A DNA stretch of 50,705 nt from IMG/VR virus record IMGVR_UViG_3300029876_000011, one strand, 5' to 3'. The notes beneath the pieces are model-generated. The model had not been told where the DNA came from. It worked only from the letters and a program-made list of their open reading frames with translations, and searched no databases. The stretch is from a virus. The position numbers and the translations under genes were made by a program. Of this stretch, positions 20,925-50,705 are shown one piece after another. Position 1 is the first letter of the stretch. Each line of letters opens with the position of its first letter.

Positions 20925-23315
20925 TTACTTTACTGAATCTGATGGACTAGTTTTTGTATATTCAAGTGTTATTTGAACATTAGTTGGACTATATGACCAT
21001 TGATTAGTACTAAAATACAAACTTATTTCTGTTGAAGTAAAATCATATAACCAAATTTCCCAACTAGTATAATTTGCGGGTATCATTTGCTGTTTACCAT
21101 CATTTCTATCACATCTGCCATGAGCATTTATAAAATTTTTTACATTACTTATGCCATGCTGTATATAAGTTTTTACTGTACTTGGTGTTCCTATATTTAT
21201 TGTTTTACTATATAAAGTCGAACCATCTGTATACTTGCCTATCACTTTTTCTTCTGTTGAATAATTATTTAGGTTGTTTATATAAGAGCAACTATAAGTA
21301 TCAGTAGTACTTGTGCTTTTTGTATTTGAAACTTCTGCTACCACTCCAGAACTTTGAAATGCTTTAATTATCCAGCAATCTACTTCATATGGTTGTAAAT
21401 TGTTATGTCCTTGGTTTCCACCTGTATTAAATATAGGGTCATTAGATGTACTATAATTGCCTAGTTTACCAGCAGTAAGATAATTCTCACCGAAACCTGT
21501 ATCATTTTGAGAACATTTTATAGTGTGCTGATGACTTGGCATTTCATCTATAGTCAAAGTGTGTTTTTTTGCACCATCTTTTTTTCCTAATAAATTAAAC
21601 TCTGTTTCTGATGAAGATAAACCAACTGATACTCTTCCTTGCTTATCAGGTAAATTGAATGTTGTTGAACCATCTCCATCACCATAACTTGTACCTATAA
21701 CTGCAAATAAATCAGAATAAGTTGTTCTAGAAACTGCTTGCCCATTACATAACAACCAATTTTCTGGTATAGTGGTACTTCCATAAGGCATCATTGATCC
21801 TATCGGCAATGTATCTCCTGCAACTCCACCATCCAATGTTTTTTCAGTATAACTGTTACTTGTAATTTCATAACCAATTACTTTGTTTCCATATGGTTGC
21901 AATAACTGAACATAAGTAGTTGTTGAACTCTTAGATATTGACATTAATAAAGGACTTGTTATTGCTGTTGTTCCATCATAAGTTGAATAATACTTTATAT
22001 ATCCATACAATTTATAAATACCTTCATCAAGATTATAAAGAACAATAGGATTAGAAGTATCTTCACTTGATAGATTTATAACTGGTTTATTGGTTAAATC
22101 GTTATAATTTGTTACACCTCCACCAGCACCATCTGCACCTTTAGGAATACCAAAATCAAATATAGGATTTGCTGTTGTTCCTCTTTGAGTTACTGTTGCT
22201 TCACTTCCTGCTGCTAATGTTGTTGTTGTTCCTACTTGAATATTAGGAGTTATTCCATCTTGTCCTGTTGCTCCAGTATCTCCTTTTTCACCCTGAATAC
22301 CTTGCGGTCCCTGCTCTCCTTGTGGTCCTGTATCTCCTTTTAACAAATTGTAATCACTTGTTGTTGCTGCCACTGACCTTAAAATAGAATATTCTACTAC
22401 TGTACCAATTACATCTAATGGAATAGTCAATACAATATTATTATTTGAAATATTATATTCAGTTCCCTCTACCATCTTGAAACCATTGATATAAACACTT
22501 AATATATCTATATCACTTCTAAATGTTGTCTCACTAAATGAAATAGGTATAGTTGTTACATTTGTTGTTGTGGTTGTATATGTATTTTTTATATTTTTGT
22601 AGTATGTTGTTATATCTGTTTTTAATTCTTCTAATTGTGCTTCTGTAAAATCTTGATAAGTAAATGGATCACCTTTTGGTCCTTGTGGTCCTGTTTCACC
22701 AGTTTCACCCTTTGGTCCTTGTTCTCCTTGCACTCCCTGTTCTCCTTGTGGTCCTGTATCTCCTTGAATACCTTGTTCTCCTTTTTCACCTTGAACACCT
22801 TGTTCACCTTGCGGTCCTGTTTCACCTTGCTCTCCTTTTGCTCCTCTAGGAATAACAAAGTTAAAAACTGCTGCACTTGATGTCCCACTATTTGTTACTT
22901 GTGCATCTGTTCCTGGCTCTCCAGTAGTAGTTGTTCCTACTTGAATAGTTGCAGCACTTCCTCCACTTTGTGCATTTAGTTTTCCATTACTATCAATCGT
23001 TAAATTATCTCCAACAATTATTCCACCTAGTGAAGTTGTTGAAGCAATTGGTAAATCATTATATTTATAATTAGTTGATTTTCTAACTAAGTAATTTCCA
23101 CTGTCTATTTTTAAAATAATATCATCTGTACTTGTTAAATTTTTTGGAATAGAAAAGGTTATATAATTACTACTTCCTCCATCATATTTCACCTTTAATT
23201 TAACAGTTCCATTTGTATAGAAATAAGAGATTGGAGGATTATAATTTATAATTCCATCATTTATTTCTAATACATTTGTTGTTTTTGTAGTTCCATTTTG
23301 CAATGTAAATTCCAA
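20925..23315 (-). CDS. Collagen-like tail fibre protein
   Basis: Two Gly-X-Y blocks ([31 protein letters not shown]... and [28 protein letters not shown]); a YNDLTNKP motif; C-terminal globular domain. Confidence 0.65.
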
Positions 23316-25442: not shown

Positions 25443-25552
25443 TCTCCTTTACTATTTGAAGCATTTTGAATAAAAAAAGATAATACATAAAATCAAAAAA
25501 CTTTATATATTATCCTCCTTTCTAATACTATTATATTAAAATAAAATATTTT

Positions 25553-26131
25553 TTACTCAAAATCGTTCATTTTTTCTCTTAATTTTCTTAAAATCCTTTT
25601 AATTTTTCTTGATATACTTCCTTGCTTAATGTTTAATATTTTTGCTAATTCATATTGTTTAATTCTCTTACAGTCTATACCATAGTAAGTTTTAATAAGA
25701 AATTTATCTTTTTCATTTAGGCTCTCAATTTCTTTATAAAGTACTTCATATTGTTCTTTTTCTATTAGCATTTTTTCTATTCTTTGAGTCTCATCTTCAA
25801 TGAAATTACTAAACTCTAATTCATCTTTATCATCATTGTTATAGACATAATCATAAGAAAGTGTATTTTTGTTTGATTTATTTTTAACACTATTTTCTTT
25901 TCTTATTTGTAAGAATATTTCATTTCTAACACATCTATAGAGATATGTTGAAGGTGCAAAGCCTTTGGTTTCATCATAAGTCTTAACACCTTTGATTAAT
26001 CCAATCATTCCTACATCATAGTAGTCCTCTTTCTTTTTATATAAGTTCATTTTTTTCAACACATCATAGATTATGTTTTCATTTTTTAAAACCAATTCCT
26101 CCTGACTTTCAGATAATTTTTTTTGCTTCAT
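25553..26131 (-). CDS. Sigma-70 family RNA polymerase sigma factor (region 2 and region 4 only, ECF/TcdR-sized)
   Basis: YYDVGMIGLIKGVKTYDETKGFAPSTYLYRCVRNEIFLQIRK matches region 2; ELAKILNIKQGSISRKIKRILRKLRE matches the region 4 helix-turn-helix. Confidence 0.7.
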   Translation of the reverse strand: MKQKKLSESQEELVLKNENIIYDVLKKMNLYKKKEDYYDVGMIGLIKGVKTYDETKGFAPSTYLYRCVRNEIFLQIRKENSVKNKSNKNTLSYDYVYNNDDKDELEFSNFIEDETQRIEKMLIEKEQYEVLYKEIESLNEKDKFLIKTYYGIDCKRIKQYELAKILNIKQGSISRKIKRILRKLREKMNDFE

Positions 26132-29915: not shown

Positions 29916-30057
29916 CTACTTTTTTACTATTTGAAGCATTTTATTTAAACCTTTATAAAATCCTTCTATATCTCCTGAAAGTATTTGACCTTTCATTGTC
30001 TTATATGTATTCTTAGGTATCTTGTATTTAAGTTTCTTTAGTTCTTTGAGTGCTTTA

Positions 30058-31239: not shown

Positions 31240-31569
31240 TTAAAGAATTTCTTTATTTAACATTTCTAAACAATATAGTGGTCCTGTACCAGTTGGTTCA
31301 TATATTCTTATATAGTCATATTCTTTGAAGTAAATTAATTCTACATCTTCTCTATCTTTAAAATGCTCTACCAACATTTTGTACATCTTTTCTCTATATT
31401 CATGGTAATTTGGTAACTTTTCTAATTCTTCTTCTATAGTTCTTAACAACTCATGGTTACCTTTAAAATGTTTTCTATAATATTCATCAATACCATAACT
31501 CTCTAGTTGTTCTAATATGCTTGTATATGTATTATCTTTTTCAATATCAAAGATACTAATTTGTTCCAT
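31240..31569 (-). CDS. Hypothetical protein
   Basis: 109 aa; preceded by the conserved GTGCAATATAA..GGTAATGTTGCA leader hairpin element. Confidence 0.4.
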   Translation of the reverse strand: MEQISIFDIEKDNTYTSILEQLESYGIDEYYRKHFKGNHELLRTIEEELEKLPNYHEYREKMYKMLVEHFKDREDVELIYFKEYDYIRIYEPTGTGPLYCLEMLNKEIL

Positions 31570-31741
31570 ATACCCCTCCTTTCAGTATGCAACATTACCA
31601 CTATCTTATATTGCACCTATGTAAGTACTAACTAGCCTAGATATATCAAGACTTTAAGCCCTATTTTTTATCTAAAATAGTTTTTAACTTTTTTAAGGTG
31701 CTTTTTTGGCTCAAAAAATGGAACTCCCCCTGATTGATAAC

Positions 31742-31873
31742 CTACTTATTTCCATTTTTCATTTCTATTAATTTGTCTGCTAAATCTTCTAGTTCTTTGT
31801 TTTCTCCAAATTTTTGTATGGCTAGATCAATACAAAAAATTAATTTAGTTAGTTCTTCATTTGTTAATTTCAT
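31742..31873 (-). CDS. Small ORF (43 aa), not in the ORF track
   Basis: MKLTNEELTKLIFCIDLAIQKFGENKELEDLADKLIEMKNGNK; AGGAGG site; preceded by the ATGCTTCAAATAGTAAA motif. Confidence 0.3.
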   Translation of the reverse strand: MKLTNEELTKLIFCIDLAIQKFGENKELEDLADKLIEMKNGNK

Positions 31874-31914
31874 TTTAACACCTCCTTTATTTACTATTTG
31901 AAGCATTGAAGCCC

Positions 31915-32109
31915 TTAAAGGACTTCAACTGCTCCAGTTTCTTTGCTGCATTTAATTTCTGTTTTCTTCCCATCAAGTTCAAACCTCCAAGAATAAGTAG
32001 TAGGTGTTTCCTTATCAACATACCAGCCTATAACTTCATCAAACTCTTTATATTTTGATTTGTTATAAACTTTCTTAATTCTACTTACTGCTTGTTTGTT
32101 TGTTAGCAT
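31915..32109 (-). CDS. Hypothetical protein
   Basis: 64 aa; driven by promoter/leader cassette copy A. Confidence 0.4.
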   Translation of the reverse strand: MLTNKQAVSRIKKVYNKSKYKEFDEVIGWYVDKETPTTYSWRFELDGKKTEIKCSKETGAVEVL

Positions 32110-32200
32110 TTTGTATTTCCCCTTTGATGTTTTAGTAGGTTATCTCCTAACCTCTATATATATAATAACATATATGATAATATATATCAATAGTTTTGTT
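32110..32200 (-). promoter_or_regulatory. Promoter/leader cassette family P-I, copy A (TTGATA-N17-TATTAT)
   Basis: -35 at 32185-32190, -10 at 32162-32167; shares the conserved leader ..tatatatagaggttaggagataacctactaaaacatcaaagggg. Confidence 0.5.
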
Positions 32201-32235
32201 TCATTTTTTATCTGTAATTTATTATTTGAAGCATA

Positions 32236-32583
32236 TTACTCTTGACTATCTACAAATCTAGTAAAGGTATTCTTATATCCTCCAATAGCATAGTCTATAT
32301 ATTCACTAGTCTTATTAATCCTTGCTTCTTGAACTTTTTCATTCGCTAATTCAGGATGTTCTTTTTGTACCTTTCTTCTTGCTCTTGTTATACTTTCAAA
32401 TGCTGGTAATTTATATTCTTTATGATTTAACATAACATCATAAAATGGTTGTCTAATTACCACATTTTCATTAATTAACTGATATACTCTATACAATAAG
32501 ACAAAATCATCTGATCTAGTATCTTCAAATCTAGTTAGCACATCTTTAACCATATCCTCCACTTTATATAAATCAGTTTTCAT
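32236..32583 (-). CDS. Hypothetical protein
   Basis: 115 aa. Confidence 0.4.
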   Translation of the reverse strand: MKTDLYKVEDMVKDVLTRFEDTRSDDFVLLYRVYQLINENVVIRQPFYDVMLNHKEYKLPAFESITRARRKVQKEHPELANEKVQEARINKTSEYIDYAIGGYKNTFTRFVDSQE

Positions 32584-32782
32584 TTTTCCCCTCCAATTCT
32601 TTCATTTTTAGTAATATATCTAGATATACTGTTTCTTGAGTTTCGTTAAAAGTATCTACCAAGAACATTACTAACATTTTCCAATTCGTTTCTAATTTAT
32701 TTAACTTTGCCAATTTCTCTGCTGTATATAAACTTAAATATTCACCTTTCATATAATCACCTCTTTTTACTATTTGAAGCAT
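32573..32782 (-). CDS. Hypothetical protein (probable true start at the internal Met; the annotated N-terminus MLQIVK is the conserved motif)
   Basis: The ATGCTTCAAATAGTAAAAAGAGGTGA motif plus ribosome-binding site lies before an internal ATG. Confidence 0.35.
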   Translation of the reverse strand: MLQIVKRGDYMKGEYLSLYTAEKLAKLNKLETNWKMLVMFLVDTFNETQETVYLDILLKMKELEGKNEN

Positions 32783-32787
32783 AATGC

Positions 32788-32979
32788 TTAATCAAATAAA
32801 CTAATTTGTTTTTTAGTAATTTGATTAGCATTAGTACTTTCTATTCTCAATGGTTCAGGTTTCTTTTCTATTTCCTTGGAAATACATTTACTACATAAAA
32901 CTAAACCATTGTGTCCACTACAATAATCCCATTTATTGCATACATCACATTGATCTTTAAATGACTTCATTATTATCAC
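32788..32979 (-). CDS. Small zinc-ribbon protein
   Basis: CDVCNKWDYCSGHNGLVLCSKC. Confidence 0.4.
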   Translation of the reverse strand: MIIMKSFKDQCDVCNKWDYCSGHNGLVLCSKCISKEIEKKPEPLRIESTNANQITKKQISLFD

Positions 32980-33421
32980 TGCTTTTCCTTCCTAATATTT
33001 CATCTGCTTCTTCTTTTGTATAGGCATCATATCCATATTGAGCATTTTGTTGTTTGTTTCTAGTCTTATGTATTTGATTTAATAATATTTTTCTATTTCC
33101 CTCATTACATAGTTTATTTTCATTATCATGGAACACTTTCATTAGTTCTAACTGATTTTTATATATTCTTCTTTCAGTTCTTAACTTATGTAGTTCTTTA
33201 ATGATCCTATATGATTCTGTAACTTTAACAGGCTCTAATTCTATGTAATGTAACCAATAATCTATCTTCTTATCAGTTAATGATTGTAAGGTAAACAACT
33301 TTTCAAAATACTCTTCATTATCTTCTAATAATCTGATTGCATTGCAGATGTTGTCTAACACATCTACTGTACTTGGTTGTTCCATGTATCCCTCCTTATA
33401 TCTTGTATTCCATATTTTCAA
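32957..33421 (-). CDS. Hypothetical protein
   Basis: 154 aa. Confidence 0.4.
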   Translation of the reverse strand: MKIWNTRYKEGYMEQPSTVDVLDNICNAIRLLEDNEEYFEKLFTLQSLTDKKIDYWLHYIELEPVKVTESYRIIKELHKLRTERRIYKNQLELMKVFHDNENKLCNEGNRKILLNQIHKTRNKQQNAQYGYDAYTKEEADEILGRKSSDNNEVI

Positions 33422-33767
33422 ATTGTTCTTTTGTTACTATTGATTTAATATCTTCATTTTTTCTTATTCTTTCAATCCACACACCAGTTCTATTATTAGG
33501 TCTTTTAACTTGTATCTCATATACTTTATTATTACTGCTTAAAATTGCAGTAACAGGATATCTATTAACATAATCTCCTACTTCTAAAATATCAATTATG
33601 TTATAACTGGCTTTAACTACATTTTCTTTTGTATATTCTCCTTGATAGATACTGCCATTATTTTCAGTTAATATAGTTGTTTCAAATACATTTGCAATTT
33701 TATTTATAACAACTATATCTTCAACATCATTTACCAGCCTTACATACATTCCAACTTTTAATTCCAT
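33396..33767 (-). CDS. Hypothetical protein, paralog family 1 (with 45419..45763)
   Basis: Shares M-L-VGMYVR ... NIIDIL-VGDYVN ... SIVTKEQFE with 45419..45763. Confidence 0.45.
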   Translation of the reverse strand: MELKVGMYVRLVNDVEDIVVINKIANVFETTILTENNGSIYQGEYTKENVVKASYNIIDILEVGDYVNRYPVTAILSSNNKVYEIQVKRPNNRTGVWIERIRKNEDIKSIVTKEQFENMEYKI

Positions 33768-33906
33768 TTTTTACACCTCCGTTCATCTTATTTCCTCCTT
33801 ATATATTTTATGCAACATTACCCATATGTTATATTGCACCTAGTAGACATTGAATAAGACTATATATATCAATGCTTTAACTAGTTTTTACTATCTAAAA
33901 TAGTTT

Positions 33907-34155
33907 TTATGATTTTTGACCTATATTTTCTATCTTTTTTCTCATATTTAGATATTCTTTACCAATAGGACTTTCAAAATATTTATTACATAAATCTATT
34001 GCAAAATTGATTGTTGCATTTGCTACATTTTTTATAGGTTCAATAACATCTTCTGGTTCTATGTCGTTTGCAATGCAATAATTAGCAAAATTATGTTTTG
34101 TTTCATCACTCATACCTTTGACTATACTAGCATTTGTAAATTTAATATGTTCCAT
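33907..34155 (-). CDS. Hypothetical protein
   Basis: 82 aa. Confidence 0.4.
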   Translation of the reverse strand: MEHIKFTNASIVKGMSDETKHNFANYCIANDIEPEDVIEPIKNVANATINFAIDLCNKYFESPIGKEYLNMRKKIENIGQKS

Positions 34156-34167
34156 CTATTTCACCTC

Positions 34168-34476
34168 CTAACATACATCAATAATTCCATCTGGATTATC
34201 TTCACAACAATTTCTCATTTCTTTAATTGCTTCTAATAAATCATAATAAGTCCCCCAACCATTTTCAGGATTTAGTTTTTCATACTCCTCTTGATTCACT
34301 ATTAAATCTTCAATGGCTTTTTGTAAAATTGGTAATGCTTCTTTACAACTCATACCATCTAATGTTTTGAAACCTCCAGGAATACATTTGTAGTACATTT
34401 TTGAAAGATTATAAGTAATATTCCTATCAAATATCTCAACTTCTCTTGTTGCTCTTACTCCTATATCTAAACTCAT
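34168..34476 (-). CDS. Hypothetical protein
   Basis: 102 aa. Confidence 0.4.
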   Translation of the reverse strand: MSLDIGVRATREVEIFDRNITYNLSKMYYKCIPGGFKTLDGMSCKEALPILQKAIEDLIVNQEEYEKLNPENGWGTYYDLLEAIKEMRNCCEDNPDGIIDVC

Positions 34477-35054
34477 CTACATTCACTCTCCTCTGATCTA
34501 ATATAATTATCATAATCTACCCATAATTTATCTATTAAAGGTTGCATATATTTAGGTATTTCTTGTCTATGTTTTAATACATAACTTGCATATGGTTTAA
34601 TTGCTAAACCTCTTTCTAAGTATGCTTCTTTATTTCTAAAATCAATTACTATTGTTTTTAGTTCATCATGTTGATAATTAGGTATCAATCCAAACCTTCC
34701 AACTCTCAATAGTCCCTTTACTTTCTCATAATTTGAATATGACTTATAAGGTGATAAATCAAGACATTCCCAATCAAAGAAATAATAATATTCAATACTT
34801 TCATCTATACTACTTCTTCTATTTTCTAGTGTTTTTTTATAAAACTTTGTAACAGCAAATTCATTAAGAAATTGCTGTAAAAATGGTGGAAAATAAGTTT
34901 GTAACATATCAACAAAACTATCGTTATTAGTCATAAAATACCTATTATAATTGACAACAACTTTTTGCTTATCACCATCACATATAAACTCTAAATGTTC
35001 ATTATCTGCTATGTTTTGAAGAGTTATAGAATTATAATCAAATTCTCTTATCAT
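34473..35054 (-). CDS. Hypothetical protein
   Basis: 193 aa. Confidence 0.4.
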   Translation of the reverse strand: MIREFDYNSITLQNIADNEHLEFICDGDKQKVVVNYNRYFMTNNDSFVDMLQTYFPPFLQQFLNEFAVTKFYKKTLENRRSSIDESIEYYYFFDWECLDLSPYKSYSNYEKVKGLLRVGRFGLIPNYQHDELKTIVIDFRNKEAYLERGLAIKPYASYVLKHRQEIPKYMQPLIDKLWVDYDNYIRSEESECR

Positions 35055-35223
35055 TTTTCCTCCATATACCCATTTCTACAAGTTCTTTTCGTTCTACTTC
35101 TTCTTCTGTTAGTTCTATTGGTTTATTTATTTTCTTTAATTCTGCTAATATTTCTTTTTGAATAGTTACTAATTTATGAATATCCTCATAAAATCTTCTT
35201 TCGTATTGATTCATAACTTTCAA
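35038..35223 (-). CDS. Hypothetical protein
   Basis: 61 aa; overlapping neighbours. Confidence 0.35.
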   Translation of the reverse strand: MKVMNQYERRFYEDIHKLVTIQKEILAELKKINKPIELTEEEVERKELVEMGIWRKNDKRI

Positions 35224-35710
35224 CTCCTTTCATTTTGCTTTTAACATTTATCCACACTTTTTTTCCTAAAATGTTATTGATTTCTCCAATTGTATAACCT
35301 TTTAAAAATAATTTTATACATTTAAGTTCTTGTTGGTTTAAGTGTGCCTTTTCTATTAATTCATTAAGATATATTTTTGTGTCTATCTCATGTTGTGGAT
35401 TATAAGATTTGTTATAAATGACTATCGGATTTTTAAAATCAAGTTTATCAATAATATCTTCTTCATAAATTTCATGCCTTACCTTTGATGAATTAAGATA
35501 ATTGTATTTCCAAAATTGTTTATCAGCATTGTATAGTTTTTCAAATGTATAATTCTCTTTATGTTTAACTTGATATCTGTTCCATAATACTAATAATTTG
35601 TGTATGTAATAATCATATAAATCATCATATTCAACATATTTTATTGTTTTGATATCTACCTTGCATAGGATTTTTACCTTGTCATAGTATTTTATTAATT
35701 CTTCCATCAT
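35186..35710 (-). CDS. Hypothetical protein with C-terminal sigma-region-4/LuxR-like helix-turn-helix
   Basis: LNQQELKCIKLFLKGYTIGEINNILGKK. Confidence 0.4.
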   Translation of the reverse strand: MMEELIKYYDKVKILCKVDIKTIKYVEYDDLYDYYIHKLLVLWNRYQVKHKENYTFEKLYNADKQFWKYNYLNSSKVRHEIYEEDIIDKLDFKNPIVIYNKSYNPQHEIDTKIYLNELIEKAHLNQQELKCIKLFLKGYTIGEINNILGKKVWINVKSKMKGVESYESIRKKIL

Positions 35711-36153
35711 ACAAACATTTTACCAATATGATACTTTTTAAAATCTTGATATTTCTTTAATAGTTCTTCTTCTTTTTTTATATCTTCATCAATTTTGTCA
35801 AATATGTTTGCTATATGCTTCTGTGTTTTAATATCATTATGTATTACTAATTCCATATGATTAAATACATCTGGTTGTATGTTTATCCCTGTTTGATATT
35901 TAGAAAGAAATACAGGCAGTTGATCACTTATAAGATAATATAAATATTTGCTATTAATTAATTTGTTGTTTTTAACAATTAGCACTATATATTGGCTTTC
36001 TACATTAGTATCTTGATTTAAGTAAAATATTTGTCCCTTACTAGCAGATACTTGAATAATGATATTTCCTTCACTATAAACTTTATTTTTCTTTGCTCTT
36101 TCAATATCAACTAAATCTAATAATTTCACTTCTTTATAATTTCTTAAATCCAT
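35707..36153 (-). CDS. hsdS: Type I restriction-modification specificity subunit, half-size (single target-recognition domain)
   Basis: 148 aa; HsdS-like TRD plus conserved C-terminal helix (HIANIFDKIDEDIKKEEELLKKYQDFKKY); start 4 nt after the hsdM stop. Confidence 0.65.
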   Translation of the reverse strand: MDLRNYKEVKLLDLVDIERAKKNKVYSEGNIIIQVSASKGQIFYLNQDTNVESQYIVLIVKNNKLINSKYLYYLISDQLPVFLSKYQTGINIQPDVFNHMELVIHNDIKTQKHIANIFDKIDEDIKKEEELLKKYQDFKKYHIGKMFV

Positions 36154-36157
36154 ATAA

Positions 36158-37450
36158 TCACCCTAACCACTCCATCATAGGTTTTATTGCTTTTGAATAA
36201 TATTCTTTTTCTTCTGGTGTAGTTCCCTCTAACTGTTCAAGCATTCCTTTTAATTGTTTTTCACATTCTTTAGTTTCTTTTTCAATTTTAATAATATCCT
36301 GTACTACTTCCTTTAAATCTGGTAATGGTTCGGTTTCAAACGTATCAACATATCTTGGAATATTTAAGTTATAATCATTTTTAACTACTTCTTCAAAACT
36401 TGCTAAATGTGAATATTTTTCTATTTCTTTTCTATTTTTGTATGTTTCTATTATTTTGTTTATTTGTTCATCATTCATATCATTTTGTTTTGCTTGCTTT
36501 ATGCAGTTTTTAGAACTATCTATAAACAAAATATTTTTATCTTGTTTATTTTTGTTCAATATTAATATGAATGTAGGAATACCTGTATTCAAAAACATTT
36601 TTTCAGGAAGGCCAATAATGCTATCAATTAAATTATTTTCTATTAATTGTTTTCTTATTTCTCCCTCTGCTGATCCTCTGAACAATACACCATGAGGCAA
36701 TATCATAAATGCTTTACCGTTATCACTCAATCTATATAGAATATCTAATACAAATGCAAAATCGGCTTTGCTTTTTGGTGCTAACTCATATCCTTCAAAC
36801 CTTTTATCACATTTTGGCTGCCATTCTATTGAATATGGAGGATTAGAGATGATGGTGTTATATTTAATATCTTGTATATTTTCACTTTTTCCGATTACAC
36901 TGAAATCATTACCTTTTTTCAGTGTGAAAGTATTTATTATTTCATTTTTCAATACATCTTTTTGAATTATTAAGGCATCTGTATTTCTAATTGATAAGTT
37001 AAACAACAATATAGGTATTGACCTAGAAGATAATTCTTCACATTGAAAAGTTGCATTCTTATTTTCATTGTAAGTAAACAATGTTAAAGATCCTGTTCCA
37101 CTGCATACATCTAATACACTATCTTGTTTATCTTGTAACCTTGCTATTATTTTACATATACTATCAGGAGTATAATCTTGCTTTAATCCTTTTCTATCAC
37201 TATGTTCTTCTTGAAAATAATCTCTAAAAAAATCGCTTGATAAATCAATGTCGTACTTCATAAAATTATTAAATAGTTTGTTTTTTTCTTCTTCATTTAA
37301 TAATAAAGTCATTAACTTATCAGGTAATTCAAAACTCTCTTTTATTCCTATAAGTTCATTTATTACTTTGCTTGTTATTTTTTTCTTTTTTTCATCATTA
37401 AATAATGACATTTGTCCATTCATATTTCCTCCTTTTACTATTTGAAGCAT
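36158..37450 (-). CDS. hsdM: Type I-like N6-adenine DNA methyltransferase (HsdM); likely true start at ATGAATGGACAAATG (~37422), since the annotated MLQIVKGG N-terminus is the conserved motif plus ribosome-binding site
   Basis: Motif I VLDVCSGTGSL, motif IV NPPYS; C-terminal HsdM-like region. Confidence 0.8.
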   Translation of the reverse strand: MLQIVKGGNMNGQMSLFNDEKKKKITSKVINELIGIKESFELPDKLMTLLLNEEEKNKLFNNFMKYDIDLSSDFFRDYFQEEHSDRKGLKQDYTPDSICKIIARLQDKQDSVLDVCSGTGSLTLFTYNENKNATFQCEELSSRSIPILLFNLSIRNTDALIIQKDVLKNEIINTFTLKKGNDFSVIGKSENIQDIKYNTIISNPPYSIEWQPKCDKRFEGYELAPKSKADFAFVLDILYRLSDNGKAFMILPHGVLFRGSAEGEIRKQLIENNLIDSIIGLPEKMFLNTGIPTFILILNKNKQDKNILFIDSSKNCIKQAKQNDMNDEQINKIIETYKNRKEIEKYSHLASFEEVVKNDYNLNIPRYVDTFETEPLPDLKEVVQDIIKIEKETKECEKQLKGMLEQLEGTTPEEKEYYSKAIKPMMEWLG

Positions 37451-38319
37451 TAAAACTTCACATTTTCTAATTTTTTTCGTTTTTGCTCTCCTGATGTTTT
37501 AGTATATATCCTTGTTGTCTTTAAATCATTATGTCCTAACAAATCTGCTAAATCTAGCACATTCTCTGGATAACTTTCTAAAAATACCTGTGCAAATAAA
37601 TGTCTAAAGTTATGAGGATGTACCTTTTCTTTATTAATTCTAGCAATTCCTGCAATCTTCTTCATTTGTCTCCAGATGGTTGATACTGCTGGCATTTTAC
37701 CTTTACACTTTGGATCATTTGATAGAAATATGTAACCGCTATCTATTCCTTTTGATTTATAGTATTTTTTTAATTCTCTTGATAGGTCTTGCCTTATTAC
37801 TATTTCTCTATCTTTTCCTTTGTTATATACCTTTATATTTTTTCTAGGTGTTTTTTCTAGGTTTTCAACTGTGAAGTACTTTAATTCTCCAATTCTACAA
37901 CCTGTCATACCTAAAACTTTAATTATGTAATATAATTGCTCGTTGCCTGTTTTATTAGCAATTCTTAATAATCTCTTAAAGTCTGCTATGGTTAATGATT
38001 CTTCATTGCTACTCTGCTCTTGCATTTTATATTTTTTTATTGTTAAGTCATTTAATCCTAACCATCTTAAATACTTATTTAATGATACTATCCATATATT
38101 CATACTCTTTGGACTTTCTGTTATGGTTCTTATATAGTCTTTATAATCCATAGTAGTATCTTTTGTTATTGACTTCTCATCATCAGGAAGCCAATTAATG
38201 AATTTCATTACATTGTTTTTATATTGCTTTAATGTATTTACTTCTTTTTCTTCATATCTTAATTCAGTTATCCATTCATCAACTTTTGATAGTAGTTCTT
38301 CTTTGTTCATAGTTATCAC
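37450..38319 (-). CDS. Tyrosine recombinase (XerC/D-sized; no arm-binding domain)
   Basis: C-terminal catalytic signature HNFRHLFAQ ... LGHNDLKTTRIYTKTS (R..H-x-x-R..Y); stop overlaps the hsdM-motif ATG. Confidence 0.75.
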   Translation of the reverse strand: MITMNKEELLSKVDEWITELRYEEKEVNTLKQYKNNVMKFINWLPDDEKSITKDTTMDYKDYIRTITESPKSMNIWIVSLNKYLRWLGLNDLTIKKYKMQEQSSNEESLTIADFKRLLRIANKTGNEQLYYIIKVLGMTGCRIGELKYFTVENLEKTPRKNIKVYNKGKDREIVIRQDLSRELKKYYKSKGIDSGYIFLSNDPKCKGKMPAVSTIWRQMKKIAGIARINKEKVHPHNFRHLFAQVFLESYPENVLDLADLLGHNDLKTTRIYTKTSGEQKRKKLENVKF

Positions 38320-38658
38320 CTAGAAAGGTAAGTCCTGATCCGTTATTTGATAATCTGTAAATGTATCTTGTTCTTTTGTTTCAACTTGTTGTTGCTGCTG
38401 TCTCTGTACATTTTCTACAACATCAAATTCAGATATAAATATGTATTCATACTTCTTACCATTTACATCATCACATTTTAACCAGGCATTTTTAATTTTA
38501 ATATCTGTTTTATTTTCTAATTCAACACCCTTTTTAAATCTACAATTTTTATACCAATTAACATAATTTCCATCTTGTTTTTTATCACTTAGACTTAATG
38601 AATAATATCCATTTTCATTTTTAAATACTTTTACTGAATAATCACTTGTTATATTCAT
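38320..38658 (-). CDS. SSB-like OB-fold protein (Gln-rich linker, acidic tail ending DLPF)
   Basis: C-terminus QQQQQVETKEQDTFTDYQITDQDLPF resembles the SSB D-(I/L)-P-F tail; stop abuts the recombinase start. Confidence 0.45.
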   Translation of the reverse strand: MNITSDYSVKVFKNENGYYSLSLSDKKQDGNYVNWYKNCRFKKGVELENKTDIKIKNAWLKCDDVNGKKYEYIFISEFDVVENVQRQQQQQVETKEQDTFTDYQITDQDLPF

Positions 38659-38799
38659 TTACTATTGCTCCTTTCTAATATTACCTTTTGCTTATCTCCA
38701 TCACATATAAAATTAAATGTTTCACAATGCAAGAAAGATAATCTTTCTAATTCTATGAGTGGCAATTTTGCATAATCAATTTCAATCATTTCCACTCTC

Positions 38800-39105
38800 C
38801 TATTCTTCTGGCTTTTTATCTAATTCTTCTAATTGCTTATTTATTGCTTGTAATTCTTTAAATGTAATAGGAACTGAGTGACCATAATGATCTCGTTTCT
38901 CTACTTCGCACTTTTCTACTTGCTTGCTAATTAGAAAATCAATCATAAAATAATCATCCCAAATTGAATTTTCAGGTATGCTTTTTATATATATAATATC
39001 CCATTCATTTGCAGAACGTTTTTTATATCCTAACTCTTCAAACATTTCTTCTACACTTATTTCTTTCTCTCTATTAACTATTTTTGTTGTTGCCATATTT
39101 ATCAC
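38800..39105 (-). CDS. Hypothetical protein, paralog family 2 (with 47436..47645)
   Basis: Shares EEMFEELGYK and ELQAINKQLEEL with 47436..47645. Confidence 0.4.
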   Translation of the reverse strand: MINMATTKIVNREKEISVEEMFEELGYKKRSANEWDIIYIKSIPENSIWDDYFMIDFLISKQVEKCEVEKRDHYGHSVPITFKELQAINKQLEELDKKPEE

Positions 39106-39202
39106 TCTCCTTTTTTTCCATATATTGGTTGCAACATTACCTATATATTATATTGCACTATATAAATGTTGATTTTTCCTTTATTTCATAAGGCATTGAG
39201 CC

Positions 39203-39364
39203 TTATTTTTTATGTAAAATAGTTTTTATGATTTTTGGTAGTAGTTTTTCTTTATAAAACACATAATGGCAGTCTGTTGCTCTAGTTATATATTTTACTT
39301 TTATGTCTTTTCTACTAATAAATTTTTCTAAATCAACTATCCATTCAAAGTGGTCTACTTTCAT
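39203..39364 (-). CDS. Small ORF (53 aa), not in the ORF track; C-terminus encoded by the repeated element-1
   Basis: Hand translation MKVDHFEWIVDLEKFISRKD...PKIIKTILHKK, verified codon by codon. Confidence 0.3.
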   Translation of the reverse strand: MKVDHFEWIVDLEKFISRKDIKVKYITRATDCHYVFYKEKLLPKIIKTILHKK

Positions 39365-39383
39365 TTTTTTCACTCTCCTTTCT

Positions 39384-39560
39384 CTACTTATTTTTATGTA
39401 AAATATTTTTTATGATTTTTGAACCAGTATCAAACATATTTTTTATAAAATCTGATATGGTATAATCTAGTAATTCATCTAGTATTTGAAATAAACTAAC
39501 CGCTAAACATATTAAATATAATGTTGCTAATACAAATAACATAAATATTATAAAATCCAT
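39384..39560 (-). CDS. Small membrane ORF (58 aa), not in the ORF track; C-terminus encoded by element-1
   Basis: MDFIIFMLFVLATLYLICLAVSLFQILDELL...SKIIKNILHKNK; ATG abuts the stop of 39561..39788. Confidence 0.3.
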   Translation of the reverse strand: MDFIIFMLFVLATLYLICLAVSLFQILDELLDYTISDFIKNMFDTGSKIIKNILHKNK

Positions 39561-40247: not shown

Positions 40248-40469
40248 TTATTCCTTTTTCCACAACAGCCACATATCTGAATAAGGACCTATTAGTTCAT
40301 CTTCAAACACCTCATAGAACCTTTCCATAAGTCCAAATGATGGATTAGATTTACCACTCTCAATATCTGAATAATGCTGCCTAGTTATGTCTAATTGTTC
40401 AGCAAAGTATTTAATACTTCTTTTGCCTTTTTCTCTTGTTCTCCTAAACTTTATTAGAGTAAACCTCAT
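40248..40469 (-). CDS. cro: Cro-like XRE-family HTH protein
   Basis: 73 aa with YFAEQLDITRQHYSDIESGKSNPS helix-turn-helix; divergent from the cI-like gene. Confidence 0.6.
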   Translation of the reverse strand: MRFTLIKFRRTREKGKRSIKYFAEQLDITRQHYSDIESGKSNPSFGLMERFYEVFEDELIGPYSDMWLLWKKE

Positions 40470-40558
40470 ATTTATTTATCACCTCCTAACAATGTTTCTT
40501 ATTGAAAGGTAATTTTACTTTTTGAAGCATACAATTCACCTCACTACCATCTATTACC

Positions 40559-40587
40559 ATTTTACTATATTTAAATAATTTTGTCAA
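40559..40587 (-). promoter_or_regulatory. Consensus promoter TTGACA-N17-TAAAAT for the cro-side early transcript
   Basis: Minus strand reads TTGACAaaattatttaaatatagTAAAATgg; 90 nt upstream of the cro ATG. Two copies of the 17-nt motif lie in the switch region. Confidence 0.55.
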
Positions 40588-40671: not shown

Positions 40672-41046
40672 GTGGAAATGACTAAAATACAAAAGTCATT
40701 AGATACTAAGGAAATTGGAGAAAAGGTTAGGCAATTAAGGAAAGCAAGATCAATGAGGCAAGATGAACTTGGAGAAGTTTTAGGAGGTTTAAGTAGAGGA
40801 CAAGTAAGTAATTTAGAAACAGGGAGAAGAAATTTAAATATTCATCAAATAAAAATATTAGCAGACTTTTTTGGAGTATCTTTAGAAACATTAGGATTAA
40901 AAACAGAAGAAGTAGAAGTTAATGATTTATTGGCTCGTGCAAAATTAATTTTTGAAAATGATACTGTACCTTTTGAAGAAAAACAAGAATTGAGTGAAGA
41001 AATTATGAAAATGTATATCATAGCAAAGGAGCAAATAAAAAAATAG
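40672..41046 (+). CDS. cI: cI-like XRE-family repressor (HTH only, no S24 peptidase domain)
   Basis: IGEKVRQLRKARSMRQDELGEVLGGLSRGQVSNLETGRR helix-turn-helix; plus strand, upstream of int. Confidence 0.65.
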   Translation: MEMTKIQKSLDTKEIGEKVRQLRKARSMRQDELGEVLGGLSRGQVSNLETGRRNLNIHQIKILADFFGVSLETLGLKTEEVEVNDLLARAKLIFENDTVPFEEKQELSEEIMKMYIIAKEQIKK

Positions 41047-41496
41047 AAGTATCTCTATTTGATACTTCAAGGAGGTGATATTTTATGCTTTAGAGCCATA
41101 TATTAGTTTTATCTCTTTTTAATTTTTTTATTTCTTCTTCTGTATAGAAGCAGTTTTCATTATCTTTAAATAAACGATTGCAACCATCATATAATCTTTT
41201 TTGTAGGCTTTTTTCTTATAACAGTATGTTTCATAATATCACCTCCTAATCAACTATAACAAAATTGATTAAGAATATATTATTAAGATACTTCTTTAAC
41301 TTTAATTTTAATTTTTAAATTATTTTGGTTGGCATATAATTCATACAATAACTCATAGAATTTAGTAATATTCACATTATCAATCCTTTCTTATCACATT
41401 GTGAAAGATAAATGCTTCAAATAGTATATTTAATAACTACATTATGAAACAAAATATAATATTATTACAACTAGAATTTAAAGGGGATATTGGAAA

Positions 41497-42855
41497 ATGA
41501 AAGCAAAAAGAATAGCAGGATATGTTAGGGTTTCACACGATGAACAAAAGAAATATGGCTATTCAGTTCAAGCACAAATAGATAGGATTATAAGGTATGC
41601 AGAAGAAAATAAATGTCAATTAGTAGAAATATATGTTGATGAGGGTTTTACTGCTACAAAAATGAAAAGACCTGATTTATTAAGAATGTTAAACGATTTA
41701 GATAAATTTGATGTACTTGTATTTACTCGTTTGGATCGTTTCTCTAGGAATGTATTACAAGCAAACAAAATGGTTGAGATTATGGAAGAATACAATGTAG
41801 CCATTAAATCAATTGAAGAAGAAGATATTGATACAACTACTGCTGATGGTAAGTTCAACTTCAATTTAAGGGTATCACTCGCCCAAAGGGAAGCAGAAAA
41901 GACAAGCGAACGGATTAAATCAATATTTGAATTTAAGATTAAACAAGGGCAACCAGTAAGTGGTAACCAACCTTATGGTTATAAAATCGTAACCAAAGAC
42001 AATAAGAAAACAATCGTTAAAGATCCTGAACTTATACCTATTGTAAATGATATATTTGAATATTTTGCTAAACATCATACTATAAGAGGCACTATGACAT
42101 ATATTAATGGTAAATACGACATAAGCAAAAATTACAATTGTATTTATAGAATGCTAACAAGTACTGAATACTATGGACTATATGAAGGTAACCCTAATTA
42201 CTACCCTCCATACATCACAAAAGAAGAATTTGAAAAGAACGTACAAAGAAGAAAAGCAAATGTTAAAGGAAGAAAAGGAACTAATGTTTATCTATTCACC
42301 TCCCTAATGAAATGCCCTTTTTGTGGGTTTAAAATGGTTGGTAAGTTCACCAAAAGAAAAAACAAAAATGGGACAATTAGAGAATACTGGGGTTACATTT
42401 GTAGCAACAACCAAAGAAATAAAGCATGTGCTAGTGGTAAGGTTATTAATGAAAATGTAATTTTAGACTTCCTTTTAAAAAATGTTGAAAAACTCGCTCA
42501 AAAACATATTGCAGAAGTTATGGAAGTTAAACCAGCAGATAAAACCGATTTACCTCAAAATCGGATTAATGAAATTTTAGAGGAAATTGACAACTTAAAT
42601 TATATGTTCCAAAAGAAAAGAATTGACATTAAAAAGTATGATAAAGAATATGAGGCACTTGAAAAAGAACTAGCAAACTTACAAAAAGAAACACCAAAGG
42701 AAACTGATATTACTATATTAGAAGAATTTTTAAAGAGTGATTGGAAAGATGTTTATAACTCTTTAGACAAAGAAAATCAAAGGGCTTTATGGAGAAATTT
42801 GATAAAGGAAATTAAGTTTAATAAAGATTTTAAAATAGATGTAGATTTCTTATAA
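41497..42855 (+). CDS. int: Large serine recombinase (integrase)
   Basis: N-terminal resolvase catalytic domain with RIAGYVRVSHDEQ (Ser nucleophile); recombinase domain; zinc ribbon CPFCGF...C..C; C-terminal coiled-coil. Confidence 0.85.
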   Translation: MKAKRIAGYVRVSHDEQKKYGYSVQAQIDRIIRYAEENKCQLVEIYVDEGFTATKMKRPDLLRMLNDLDKFDVLVFTRLDRFSRNVLQANKMVEIMEEYNVAIKSIEEEDIDTTTADGKFNFNLRVSLAQREAEKTSERIKSIFEFKIKQGQPVSGNQPYGYKIVTKDNKKTIVKDPELIPIVNDIFEYFAKHHTIRGTMTYINGKYDISKNYNCIYRMLTSTEYYGLYEGNPNYYPPYITKEEFEKNVQRRKANVKGRKGTNVYLFTSLMKCPFCGFKMVGKFTKRKNKNGTIREYWGYICSNNQRNKACASGKVINENVILDFLLKNVEKLAQKHIAEVMEVKPADKTDLPQNRINEILEEIDNLNYMFQKKRIDIKKYDKEYEALEKELANLQKETPKETDITILEEFLKSDWKDVYNSLDKENQRALWRNLIKEIKFNKDFKIDVDFL

Positions 42856-43673: not shown

Positions 43674-43689
43674 TTTTTGTTTTCCCCTT

Positions 43690-43762
43690 TGATGTTTTAG
43701 TAGGTTATTTCTTAACCTCTATATATATAATAACATATATAATAATACATATCAATAGATTT
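43690..43762 (-). promoter_or_regulatory. Promoter/leader cassette family P-I, copy B (TTGATA-N17-TATTAT, leader hairpin aggttaagaaataacct, RBS AAAGGGG)
   Basis: -35 at 43750-43755, -10 at 43727-43732; the leader is near-identical to copies at 32110-32200 and 44045-44114. Confidence 0.5.
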
Positions 43763-43824
43763 GCTTCTAATTTATTATTTAGTTTATTATTTGAAGCATA
43801 AGAGGGAGATTAATCCCTCTCGTT

Positions 43825-44034
43825 TTATTTTCTTATGATGTTGTATTTCTTATATTCATTAAAAAAATCTGCTTTTTTTAATCTATCAATCTTTACTACT
43901 TTAAATTCATCTTTGTTAAATACTTCATGAGTTGTATCTCCAATTTGTTCTTTCATTTTATTACTTAATGTTGAACTAAATATCACTCCTCTTTGTTTTT
44001 GATCCTTTGTTAATTTGCGGTAGATGTTCTTCAT
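43825..44034 (-). CDS. Hypothetical basic protein
   Basis: 69 aa; driven by cassette copy C. Confidence 0.4.
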   Translation of the reverse strand: MKNIYRKLTKDQKQRGVIFSSTLSNKMKEQIGDTTHEVFNKDEFKVVKIDRLKKADFFNEYKKYNIIRK

Positions 44035-44044
44035 TTTGTTTTCC

Positions 44045-44114
44045 CCTTTGATGTTTTAGTAGGTTATCTCTTAACCTCTATATATATAATAACATATATA
44101 TTTACACACATCAA
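44045..44114 (-). promoter_or_regulatory. Promoter/leader cassette family P-I, copy C (TTGATG-N17-TATTAT)
   Basis: -35 at 44109-44114, -10 at 44086-44091; same conserved leader. Confidence 0.5.
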
Positions 44115-44141
44115 ACAAAATGCTTCTATTTGAATACTTTT

Positions 44142-44357
44142 TTAAATTATAAATATTTTATCATTATCCATTGTTTCAATTGATCCGATCATTTCTAGTT
44201 CTTCTAACCATCGTGTGAAGAAATATTCTTCCTCACTATTTTCAATTCCTAGTAATCTTTTTAATTGGATAATGTCAGTAGTATAACCACCTTGTAACAT
44301 AGCAACTAATTCTAATAATTGAGTTTTAATTTTATTTTTAAGTTTTTCATTTGTCAT
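44142..44357 (-). CDS. Hypothetical protein
   Basis: 71 aa. Confidence 0.4.
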   Translation of the reverse strand: MTNEKLKNKIKTQLLELVAMLQGGYTTDIIQLKRLLGIENSEEEYFFTRWLEELEMIGSIETMDNDKIFII

Positions 44358-45220: not shown

Positions 45221-45419
45221 TCAAAAGAACCTTTTTTCAAATATTTCATGAGTACATATACTATATACTAAATCTTCTATATCATCACCAGATATAAACC
45301 AACCATCATTTAAATAGCAAGTATTCTCTTTTATTTCAACTATACAATGATTATCTAGAAAATCCCCCACTTATATTTAATAATACTTCTTTATCTTGAC
45401 TTCTAATCCATAATTCCAT
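45221..45419 (-). pseudogene. Frameshifted small ORF at a G5 homopolymer (plus-strand C5 at 45364-45368)
   Basis: MELWIRSQDKEVLLNISGGFSR then stop; the other frame continues DFLDNHCIVEIKENTCYLNDGWFISGDDIEDLVYSICTHEIFEKRFF. The ATG overlaps the stop of 45419..45763 (TAATG). Confidence 0.35.
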
Positions 45420-45763
45420 TACTTTTCTCCTATTCTATATTCTGCAATTTCAAATAATTCTTTTGTTACGACTGATTTAATGGCTTGTTTATAAAATTTA
45501 TAGTGGTTAGTTGTTCCATTTTCTACTGGATAATCACATTGTACGAAGTGTGCATAATCATAACCTTTTAATGACACCTTATAGCCGTTAACATAATCTC
45601 CTACTTTAATTAAATCTATTATGTCATAACTAGCATCTTGAATGCTTTTTTTATTTATATAAAATCCATTTAATTTATATTCTCTTTCGTTAAAATCAAC
45701 TAACTCTTTTATTTTTTTTATTACCCCACCATATCGTACATACATTCCAACTTCTAATTTCAT
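45419..45763 (-). CDS. Hypothetical protein, paralog family 1
   Basis: See 33396..33767. Confidence 0.45.
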   Translation of the reverse strand: MKLEVGMYVRYGGVIKKIKELVDFNEREYKLNGFYINKKSIQDASYDIIDLIKVGDYVNGYKVSLKGYDYAHFVQCDYPVENGTTNHYKFYKQAIKSVVTKELFEIAEYRIGEK

Positions 45764-47215: not shown

Positions 47216-47445
47216 TTCACCTCTTTACTAAATAGTACTTTATCTAATAATTTTTCTTGTTTTCGATTTAAAGTAACACCTAATTTTAGACATTCTACTA
47301 ATATTTCTAGTTCTTTGTTTTCCCTTTTTAATTGCTTGCTTTCTTTTAACAAATCCTTAACAAATTCTTCTTCAAGTAAAGAACAAGACTTTATGTAACC
47401 ATATTTATATTTTCTCATTAGATCTTCTGCTATCATTAATTCCAC
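47212..47445 (-). CDS. Hypothetical protein
   Basis: 77 aa. Confidence 0.4.
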   Translation of the reverse strand: MELMIAEDLMRKYKYGYIKSCSLLEEEFVKDLLKESKQLKRENKELEILVECLKLGVTLNRKQEKLLDKVLFSKEVK

Positions 47446-47645
47446 CCCAATTCTTCTACTTGCTTATTTATTGCTTGTAATTCTTCAAGACCTATTGATT
47501 GAGTAATCAATATTTGTTTATCGTCAAAGAAAGCAATATGAGTAATTCTTCCTGTAGGATGAGGACCTTTATAAATGATTATTTTCTCATTTATAAGTTT
47601 ATATCCTAACTTTTCAAACATCTCTTTAGCAGTCATTATTATCAC
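47436..47645 (-). CDS. Hypothetical protein, paralog family 2
   Basis: See 38800..39105. Confidence 0.4.
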   Translation of the reverse strand: MIIMTAKEMFEKLGYKLINEKIIIYKGPHPTGRITHIAFFDDKQILITQSIGLEELQAINKQVEELGWN

Positions 47646-50473: not shown

Positions 50474-50705
50474 CTATACCTTTGTTAAAAGCATTAACTG
50501 CACTTTCAATTAATATTTCTAATTCAGTTTCACTTATATTAATACCTTTTTCATTTAACCACTCAATTGATTTTTCTTTTGCTTGATTAAATTTTTCTTG
50601 GCTTGTTTTCTTTACTCCAGAAACAGAACAAATTTGTTCCACATATTCTACTGTTGCCTTTACTACTTCTTTTTTTGTTTTGTCATTTACATATTTATCA
50701 TATGT
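50457..50705 (-). CDS. Holin-like small membrane protein, C-terminal portion of the junction-spanning gene (see 1..198)
   Basis: The ORF-track entry 50457..50642 begins at an internal GTG; the reading frame is open upstream through 50705 and continues at 101-198. Confidence 0.45.
   Translation of the reverse strand, partial: TYDKYVNDKTKKEVVKATVEYVEQICSVSGVKKTSQEKFNQAKEKSIEWLNEKGINISETELEILIESAVNAFNKGIGVKNE
50607..50705. repeat. Terminal redundancy, second copy of 1-99
   Basis: Identical sequence. Confidence 0.9.

Follow-up and report, generated by a model that had tools for sequence, protein, structure and literature searches.

The dif sites of Xer recombination have an 11-6-11 layout, and single-recombinase Xer systems adjoin their sites, one arm of which is preferred or better conserved (PMC5357621). 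Here we describe a repeated intergenic cassette of about 120 nt, with element 1 (E1) at one end and element 2 (E2) at the other, and the neighbouring gene for an Xer-like tyrosine recombinase in the viral record IMGVR_UViG_3300029876_000011 (50,705 nucleotides; this whole stretch is called the window below). As in XerS/difSL, XerH/difH and archaeal XerA/dif, where the recombinases have ~290-360 aa, a recombinase of this kind is linked to an asymmetric site with imperfectly inverted arms of about 11 bp around a short centre; in the present phage the left arm is invariant and the recombinase gene is adjacent. XerS/difSL and XerH/difH have one site per chromosome and serve dimer resolution, whereas here 1-3 direct-repeat sites are found per genome; against the single site per replicon that characterizes dif, the window genome has three and most relatives have 2-3. 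Unlike difSL and difH, the site is embedded in a 120-bp cassette together with E1 and a stem-loop, in an early lytic operon. We established no sequence identity to difSL or difH.

In phage P1, too, a simple tyrosine recombinase encoded by the phage, Cre, has a short palindromic site, loxP, close to its gene, and lox sites that differ in their spacers only do not recombine with each other; loxP has a 13-8-13 layout and occurs once per genome. Cre differs from the present recombinase in having no detectable sequence similarity to it, and is absent from its PDB hits. By comparison with lox, we infer that the T, C and G types of E2 (Table 1) may be heterospecific. TnpI of Tn4430, a tyrosine recombinase of ~284 aa, has a site of ~116 bp, the IRS, directly upstream, with a palindromic core and accessory motifs at a fixed distance; these motifs are extra copies of the recombinase-binding motif, and each transposon has one IRS. 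In contrast, E1 does not resemble the E2 arms. T4-type phages carry PeSL cassettes, short repeated intergenic units with a stem-loop and a good sigma-70 early promoter, found on either side of variable small early genes and at mosaic joints, whereas the present cassette is without a -35 element and is tied to a recombinase gene. A relationship to integron attC was rejected: E1 (AAAAASTATTTT) is not complementary to the E2 arms, and E2 and the middle stem each fold on themselves.

The pdif sites of Acinetobacter plasmids are thought to be used by the host XerC/XerD and flank modules in inverse orientation. Several of these Xer-type 28-bp sites per replicon bound variable gene blocks (PMC6449649, PMC13141974). 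Here, unlike pdif, the recombinase is phage-encoded and the sites are all direct repeats; some mosaic joints fall at other repeats. In SPbeta, which integrates with a serine recombinase, the protein MrpR (YopR) has the tyrosine recombinase fold without the catalytic residues, maintains lysogeny and binds SPBRE, a 15-bp motif repeated in about 10 intergenic or promoter regions (PMC10516654). The window resembles SPbeta in its short element repeated before phage genes and its large serine recombinase, and differs in that the catalytic residues of the Xer-like protein are invariant, its gene lies in a lytic-direction early operon, and E2 is a 28-bp palindrome.

One intergenic cassette with two conserved ends

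Bases 1-99 of the window are identical to bases 50607-50705 according to a repeat finder, so that the contig closes into a circle of 50,606 bp and probably represents an entire phage genome. The G+C content is 25-32%, and the minus strand holds nearly all genes. The early operon is preceded by a good promoter (TTGACA-17-TAAAAT at 40587). Because the cassette sits in this operon, its anatomy was read on the minus (coding) strand. Megablast found no near-identical known phage, no close relative was found among deposited phages, and the nearest isolate relative of the recombinase, in Erysipelothrix phage SE-1, has 31% identity.

A preliminary description of the window had listed four copies of E1 and three of E2 as two separate elements. 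The copies themselves were recovered and lie far beyond chance: within the window the exact 12-mer TGCAACATTACC occurs at 31588, 33811 and 39130 only, an E1 23-mer, allowing up to 3 mismatches, has 3 matches where none is expected, and the repeat finder put all four E1 copies in one family (76-100% identity). Rather than being independent, the elements terminate a single intergenic cassette of about 120 nt, seen by the repeat finder as a 118-nt unit at 31578-31695, 33801-33918 and 39120-39237 (69-72% identical), in which the distance from E1 to the downstream E2 is a constant 70 nt. The window thus holds three full cassettes and one solo E1.

On the coding strand, E1 is followed by a variable stem-loop and then by E2, and the cassette fills whole intergenic gaps of the early operon. 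In copy 1, E1 holds the 3' end of the open reading frame (ORF) 39203..39373, and the ATG of the next gene (39096) lies 33 nt past E2. In copy 2, the stem-loop is interrupted (CTAGT/ACTAG plus GCATTGA/TCAATGT), and the stop of ORF 33907..34155 (..GQKS, TCA TAA) lies within E1 in a second reading frame, whereas E1 (33885-33921) had been described as lying just past that stop. The stem-loop of copy 3 is weak (AGGGCUU/AGUCUU) and pairs on the sense strand only, through G.U; 59 nt separate the stop of the upstream ORF 31742..31873 from the E1 core, and the next gene begins 18 nt past E2. The ribosome-binding site (RBS) of 39203..39373 comes directly after the solo E1. Each of the three E2 copies stands 18-43 nt ahead of a start codon.

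Table 1. Cassette parts and neighbouring genes in the window
Feature	Position	Strand	Description
Cassette copy 1 (T-type)	39130..39250	minus	E1 39203-39250, core AAAAACTAT at 39219-39227
Copy 1 stem-loop	39188-39206	minus	
Copy 1 E2	39130-39157	minus	TGCAATATAAT-ATATAG-GTAATGTTGCA
Cassette copy 2 (C-type)	33811..33931	minus	E1 core 33900-33908
Copy 2 E2	33811-33838	minus	TGCAATATAAC-ATATGG-GTAATGTTGCA
Cassette copy 3 (G-type)	31588..31708	minus	E1 core 31677-31685
Copy 3 E2	31588-31615	minus	TGCAATATAAG-ATAGTG-GTAATGTTGCA
Solo E1, without E2	39378..39426	minus	3' end of ORF 39384..39560 (..SKIIKNILHKNK, then stop)
Xer-like tyrosine recombinase, 289 aa	37450..38319	minus	between cassettes 1 and 2; Pfam PF00589 and PF02899
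cro-like gene	40248..40469	minus	opens the long minus-strand early operon
cI-like gene	40672..41046	plus	
Large serine recombinase	41497..42855	plus	adjoins the cI-like gene
Paralogue pair	33396-33767 and 45419-45763		
Paralogue pair	38800-39105 and 47436-47636		

Two side observations concern the genes next to the cassettes. Visual inspection of the translations showed that the genes which follow cassettes 2 and 1 each have a paralogue in the other small-gene region, at 43-50 kb (Table 1). The interval 33768-33800 (minus strand), which separates the copy 2 E2 from the beginning of 33396..33767, contains a strong RBS with an ATG (AAGGAGGAAATAAGATG) in another frame; in the relative L002 (L numbers denote loci of relatives) the same start opens a real, different gene, which suggests that the signal in the window is a remnant of a replaced downstream gene.

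Exact-pattern scans of viral contigs with either element alone recovered the same contigs, with E1 always about 78 nt before E2, and the cassette was also found in Bacillota and Erysipelotrichaceae metagenome-assembled genomes (MAGs) and in metagenomes. Overall 68 distinct cassettes were gathered through pattern scans of viral contigs, MAGs, a profile search of fetched loci, loci fetched by way of the recombinase, and a metagenome scan whose pattern was too loose (23 of 120 stretches were real cassettes). The search patterns required most of TGCAATATAA and of the E1 core, diverged versions are under-sampled, and many of the collected sequences are close relatives. Across these cassettes, E1 is rich in A-tracts, with three or four AAAAAnTA-like repeats and the near-invariant core AAAAA[C/G]TAT. 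The stem-loop varies by lineage with compensatory or G.U-preserving changes, as in a 12-bp TCTCTCTAATCC/GGATTAGAGAGA stem and its TAATTC/GAATTA variant or in GCCCT/GGGGT, and is weak or absent in some lineages (e.g. L071, L075). The distance from the first base of the E1 core to E2 is 68 nt in 22 copies, 69 nt in 5 and 70 nt in 41, across intervening DNA that has diverged. This strict spacing suggests one nucleoprotein or RNA unit and not independent signals.

E2 is a 28-bp imperfect palindrome with an 11-6-11 layout (TGCAATATAAy-NNNNNN-GTwATrTTGCA), composed of TGCAATATAA, one variable base, a 6-bp centre (mostly ATnnnG) and GTwATrTTGCA. Symmetric variants occur in L057 (TGCAAGATAA..TTATCTTGCA) and L069 (GGCAATATAAT..ATTATCTTTCC), and the stem, previously given as 7 bp, has 9-10 bp. 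Among 44 distinct copies, 91.4% of the cells in the 10 arm pairs are complementary; four of the 10 pairs are invariant, a double change occurs in one pair only, and pair 80:97 is unpaired in 16 of the 44. The covariation score is 0.062, barely above the 0.054 of shuffles, and RNAalifold keeps five pairs at -1.6 kcal/mol. E2 is thus conserved in sequence with almost no covariation, as a sequence-specific palindrome would be rather than a structural RNA. Its half-sites occur nowhere else in the window.

Beside a 53%-identical recombinase gene in L051 (~2043-2120), the right arm of E2 is replaced, and a segment of 57 bp that contains the TGCAATATAAT arm is enclosed by an inverted repeat of 10 bp without mismatches, GTATAGATAA ... 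TTATCTATAC; this could be a rearranged or alternative site. A conserved stretch, AATATATAG, stands 3-4 nt past E2 and before the RBS in many cassettes of the 70-nt class, with the versions AATATATGG in window copy 1 (39118-39126) and AATATATAA in copy 2 (33799-33807); neither window copy 3 nor the 68-nt class has it.

Upstream ORFs end in or before E1 in all three frames. Frame-1 ORFs end in ..KIIKTILHKK, their stop lying 22 nt into E1; those of frame 2 end in ..QKS, their stop being part of TCATAA, and those of frame 0 in ..NYF or ..YST; the remaining upstream ORFs stop 9-62 nt before E1. The nucleotides are therefore conserved and the shared peptide tail is a by-product. In four ORFs of the window it is a DNA element, and not selection on the protein, that has shaped the 3' end. 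The preliminary description had likewise proposed a nucleotide-level function with an incidental peptide tail, and this holds over the 68 copies; a peptide kept without its nucleotides was looked for among the relatives, and the opposite was found. Its C-terminal readings ..KIIKTILHKK (39203..39373) and ..SKIIKNILHKNK (39384..39560) are correct. It also read the 43-aa ORF 31742..31873 as ending in TAG and continuing open to ..KKLKTILDKK, as we find, except that the continuation up to the next stop has 26 codons and not 27; readthrough of the TAG found no support. On the downstream side, E2 ends 16-36 nt ahead of the next start codon across cassettes, and those cases of the 68-nt class, among the ones inspected, in which 79-87 nt lie between the two seem to have a tiny ORF in the gap. 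Since the cassette fills the entire gap in a compact genome, the closeness of E2 to a start codon says little alone.

Linkage to a recombinase gene and a predicted recombinase site

The best solved relative of the Xer-like protein is XerA (4a8e, E 1.3e-24), XerD is also among the best, and the protein matches phrog_216/phrog_1 (integrase). In an alignment of eight relatives, down to 45% identity, R142, K167/K169, H236, R239, H263 and Y272 are invariant. The link between this gene and the cassette is an addition to the preliminary description. In loci fetched by the DNA pattern alone, the recombinase gene comes after the first cassette; in phages whose recombinases are 43-59% identical, E2 lies 40-110 nt before the recombinase start. 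The order is reversed in L057, L058, L065, L128, L206 and L225, where the recombinase stops ~20 nt before E1. The linkage was counted over loci fetched by DNA pattern alone and cassettes with at least 1.3 kb of flanking room; loci L030-L109, fetched through the recombinase, were left out, a bias that we counted against the prediction made below. A tyrosine recombinase lay within 1.3 kb of 25 of the 28 T-type (first) cassettes, and within 180 nt in 17, on either side. In L010-type phages this neighbour is a short 215-aa recombinase, which belongs to PHROG 216 as well. All-against-all clustering of 17 phage groups showed that the recombinase is the only protein family present in nearly all of them.

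The arms of E2 vary in two ways. Right-arm position 22 is uniform across the sites of each genome in 15/15 multi-site genomes and follows the recombinase clade, being G in the group of the window, A in the 68-nt class and C in L055, L071 and L093. Arm position 11, on the other hand, differs among the sites of one genome in 14 of 15, usually with T in the first, C in the second and G in the third, and does so even where the cassettes are otherwise near-identical (L055, L071, 68-nt class). Shared arms with unlike centres are what would be expected of several sites kept distinct and used by one phage protein, and the pattern is suggestive in this respect; it comes from about 6 independent lineages, and gene conversion or linkage could contribute to it.

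Taken together, the layout of E2, its linkage and its variation lead us to predict, with evenly balanced confidence, that E2 serves the phage's own Xer-type recombinase as its cognate DNA site. One recombinase monomer would bind each arm, as at dif, lox or difSL. Binding could have either of two outcomes: strand exchange between like sites, with the unlike centres preventing deletion between the direct repeats of one genome, or control of nothing but the expression of the gene starting 16-36 nt downstream, with E2 as an operator. E1 and the stem-loop would be accessory or architectural DNA, or would act on the transcript. Strand exchange is favoured because the catalytic residues are conserved, about 20 bp separate the half-site centres and the sites differ in their central regions; the operator role is favoured because E2 precedes genes and its arm is -10-like, comparable to MrpR on SPBRE.

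A bolder form of the strand-exchange outcome, which strikes us as improbable, is that the early region forms a natural cassette-exchange system, with two or three dif-like sites whose arms co-evolve with the enzyme and whose centres are T, C or G. The sites of one phage could not then delete the intervening DNA, and whole gene blocks could be swapped by recombination of like sites with co-infecting or resident relatives. Among phages, such a system would correspond to engineered heterospecific-lox exchange and to the dif modules of plasmids.

Several points weigh against E2 as a recombinase site. Two or three active sites in direct repeat would delete the DNA between them unless their centres block this, and the blocking is assumed. 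The viral contigs contained no deletion or circle junctions between cassettes 1 and 2 and no hybrid junctions of cassettes 3 and 2. Mosaic joints do occur right after TGCAATATAA, for example between L011 and L014 or between L081 and other cassette-2-type copies, and also at E1 and other repeats; these joints are uninformative on site-specific exchange, because homologous recombination in the invariant arm gives the same picture. Even among phages whose recombinases share only 43% identity the left arm of E2 stays invariant, which could instead be due to a conserved host factor such as the host RNA polymerase; part of the invariance is ascertainment, because the search patterns require TGCAATATAA. 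The same E2 stands beside both the 215-aa and the 289-aa recombinase, which share 24% identity over the catalytic motifs, and T-type cassettes with room on both sides in L007, L123 and L177 have no recombinase near. Finally, the arm contains a -10-like hexamer, all cassettes are co-oriented with the genes and placed just before the RBS, as also fits an expression signal, and the sense strand folds better than the antisense strand.

Other targets or functions were considered for the recombinase. By eye, the two genes directly after its own (35707-37423, minus strand) resemble those of an HsdM-like methyltransferase of type I and of an HsdS-like subunit of half size. An hsdS shufflon as the target was rejected, as no long inverted repeats surround the hsdM/hsdS-like genes and relatives (L001) keep the recombinase without them. 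A function as the phage integrase was rejected as well, most relatives carrying a serine (or other) integrase beside cI. A tRNA near the recombinase gene in L017 is ambiguous.

Expression signals and RNA elements as alternatives

The first alternative, which we consider unlikely, is an expression cassette independent of the recombinase: a delayed-early promoter inside the operon, with A-tracts upstream and with a stem-loop, similar to PeSL, in which the left arm of E2 would be the -10 element, the conserved GG the start site and the palindrome the operator of another regulator. Its placement is apt, all copies being intergenic, co-oriented with the genes and with E2 16-36 nt before the next start. 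TATAAT is perfect in the T-type, C or G at position 11 followed by AT restores TAAnAT (13/13 in the alignment), and the left arm is conserved more than symmetry requires. A fixed A-tract spacing would fit the phase-dependent activation by curved DNA that is familiar from Bacillus phage promoters. The genome also has another repeated cassette with good sigma-70-type promoters, a 127-nt intergenic unit at 32109-32235, 43674-43800 and 44033-44159 that begins with a ATGCTTCAAATAATAAA motif and carries TTGATA-17-TATTAT with an upstream TG. These promoters score 10 of 12 in a consensus scan, which none of the three E2 copies passes (0/3), and no -35-like hexamer is enriched 16-18 bp upstream of the -10-like arm (mean match 1.4-2.5 of 6, no better than at other offsets). 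Half-site centres about 20 bp apart are unusual for helix-turn-helix operators, and a promoter leaves unexplained both the adjacency of the recombinase on either side in divergent lineages and the genome-specific arm variants. By eye, none of the sigma-54, sigma-F/G, extracytoplasmic-function (ECF)-like spacings or antisense-strand promoters fits. A cI/Cro operator was rejected, as the cI-cro intergenic region has no TGCAA half-sites.

We give little credence to a second alternative, an RNA processing or stability element, in which the middle stem-loop would protect a 3' end, the A/U-rich linker would be cleaved and the E2 hairpin would protect the new 5' end, or the E2 hairpin would be the binding site of a translational regulator. 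Folding of the window copies against shuffled sequences gave z values of -2.2, -2.8 and -1.5 for the sense strand and -1.0, -0.6 and -0.5 for the antisense strand, and among 45 distinct cassettes the sense strand was the more stable in the middle region (33 vs 11) and in E2 (37 vs 8). The middle stem shows compensatory or G.U-preserving changes (e.g. TAATCC/GGATTA to TAATTC/GAATTA, and GCCCT/GGGGT), and U.G variants occur at E2 pairs 75:103 and 80:97. Set against this are the conservation of E2 without covariation and the few pairs retained by RNAalifold, as given above. Moreover, one whole clade fixes a mid-stem U-C mismatch at every site, several lineages have no middle hairpin or a very weak one, and the invariant E1 core and the recombinase linkage are left unexplained. 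Rfam 15 gave no family match: no hit reached the gathering threshold over the whole window, and nothing relevant appeared at E <=5 over 31400-39500. The stem-loop itself may have a role at the RNA level, given the better folding of the sense strand.

It is highly improbable that the cassette is an antisense intrinsic terminator stopping transcription that runs against the early genes. A terminator scan flags 39188-39206 on the plus strand with the tail TTTTTATGTA, and the 12-bp stem of the 68-nt class is preceded by A6-7 on the sense strand, which gives a stem followed by U6-7 on the antisense strand; however, G.U pairs of the stem become A.C mismatches there (window copy 1, L018, L040, L058), no conserved antisense promoter lies downstream, and E2, the fixed spacing and the recombinase linkage are left unexplained. 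A sense-strand intrinsic terminator was rejected, because the A-run precedes the stem, no U-run follows it and the terminator shape exists on the plus strand only. Thus, of the operator, RNA structure or terminator suggested in the preliminary description, an operator is possible, whereas the absence of a U-tract speaks against a sense terminator and the conservation of E2 without covariation against a purely structural RNA.

Other repeats of the window and implications

A third motif, ATGCTTCAAATAGTAAA, occurs in 17 copies with up to 3 mismatches, against 0.95 expected, for example at 3860-3876, 25448-25464, 29923-29939, 31890-31906, 32766-32782, 37434-37450 and 40514-40530 (minus strand) and at 41412-41428 (plus strand). 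It is always co-oriented with the local genes and creates spurious ORF starts reading MLQIVK... It usually stands just past a stop codon or terminator and 3-30 nt before an RBS or a sigma-70-like promoter, and is also found inside ORFs (3860, 12799, 24942). The gene at 25553-26131 (minus strand), which immediately precedes the lysis and structural genes, encodes a sigma-70 family protein with regions 2 and 4 that probably regulates late genes. ORF 35186..35710 encodes a 174-aa protein that has by eye the look of a region-4-type helix-turn-helix protein and has no Pfam hit. Collagen-like repeats with a 9-nt period occur in a tail-fibre-like gene (22254-22846), and two other late genes contain exact 27-nt tandem repeats (17475-17606) and 33-nt repeats (11781-11889).

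If E2 is a working site of the Xer-type recombinase, widespread uncultured Bacillota phages would carry a second, simple site-specific recombination system besides their integrase. Several non-identical sites at the borders of variable blocks would then provide a mechanism, or a regulator, for modular exchange in early regions, and the recombinases and their sites could be new small pairs for genome engineering. If E2 is an operator only, it would be the second case, after MrpR and SPBRE, of a recombinase-family protein governing several phage promoters, here with the catalytic residues kept.

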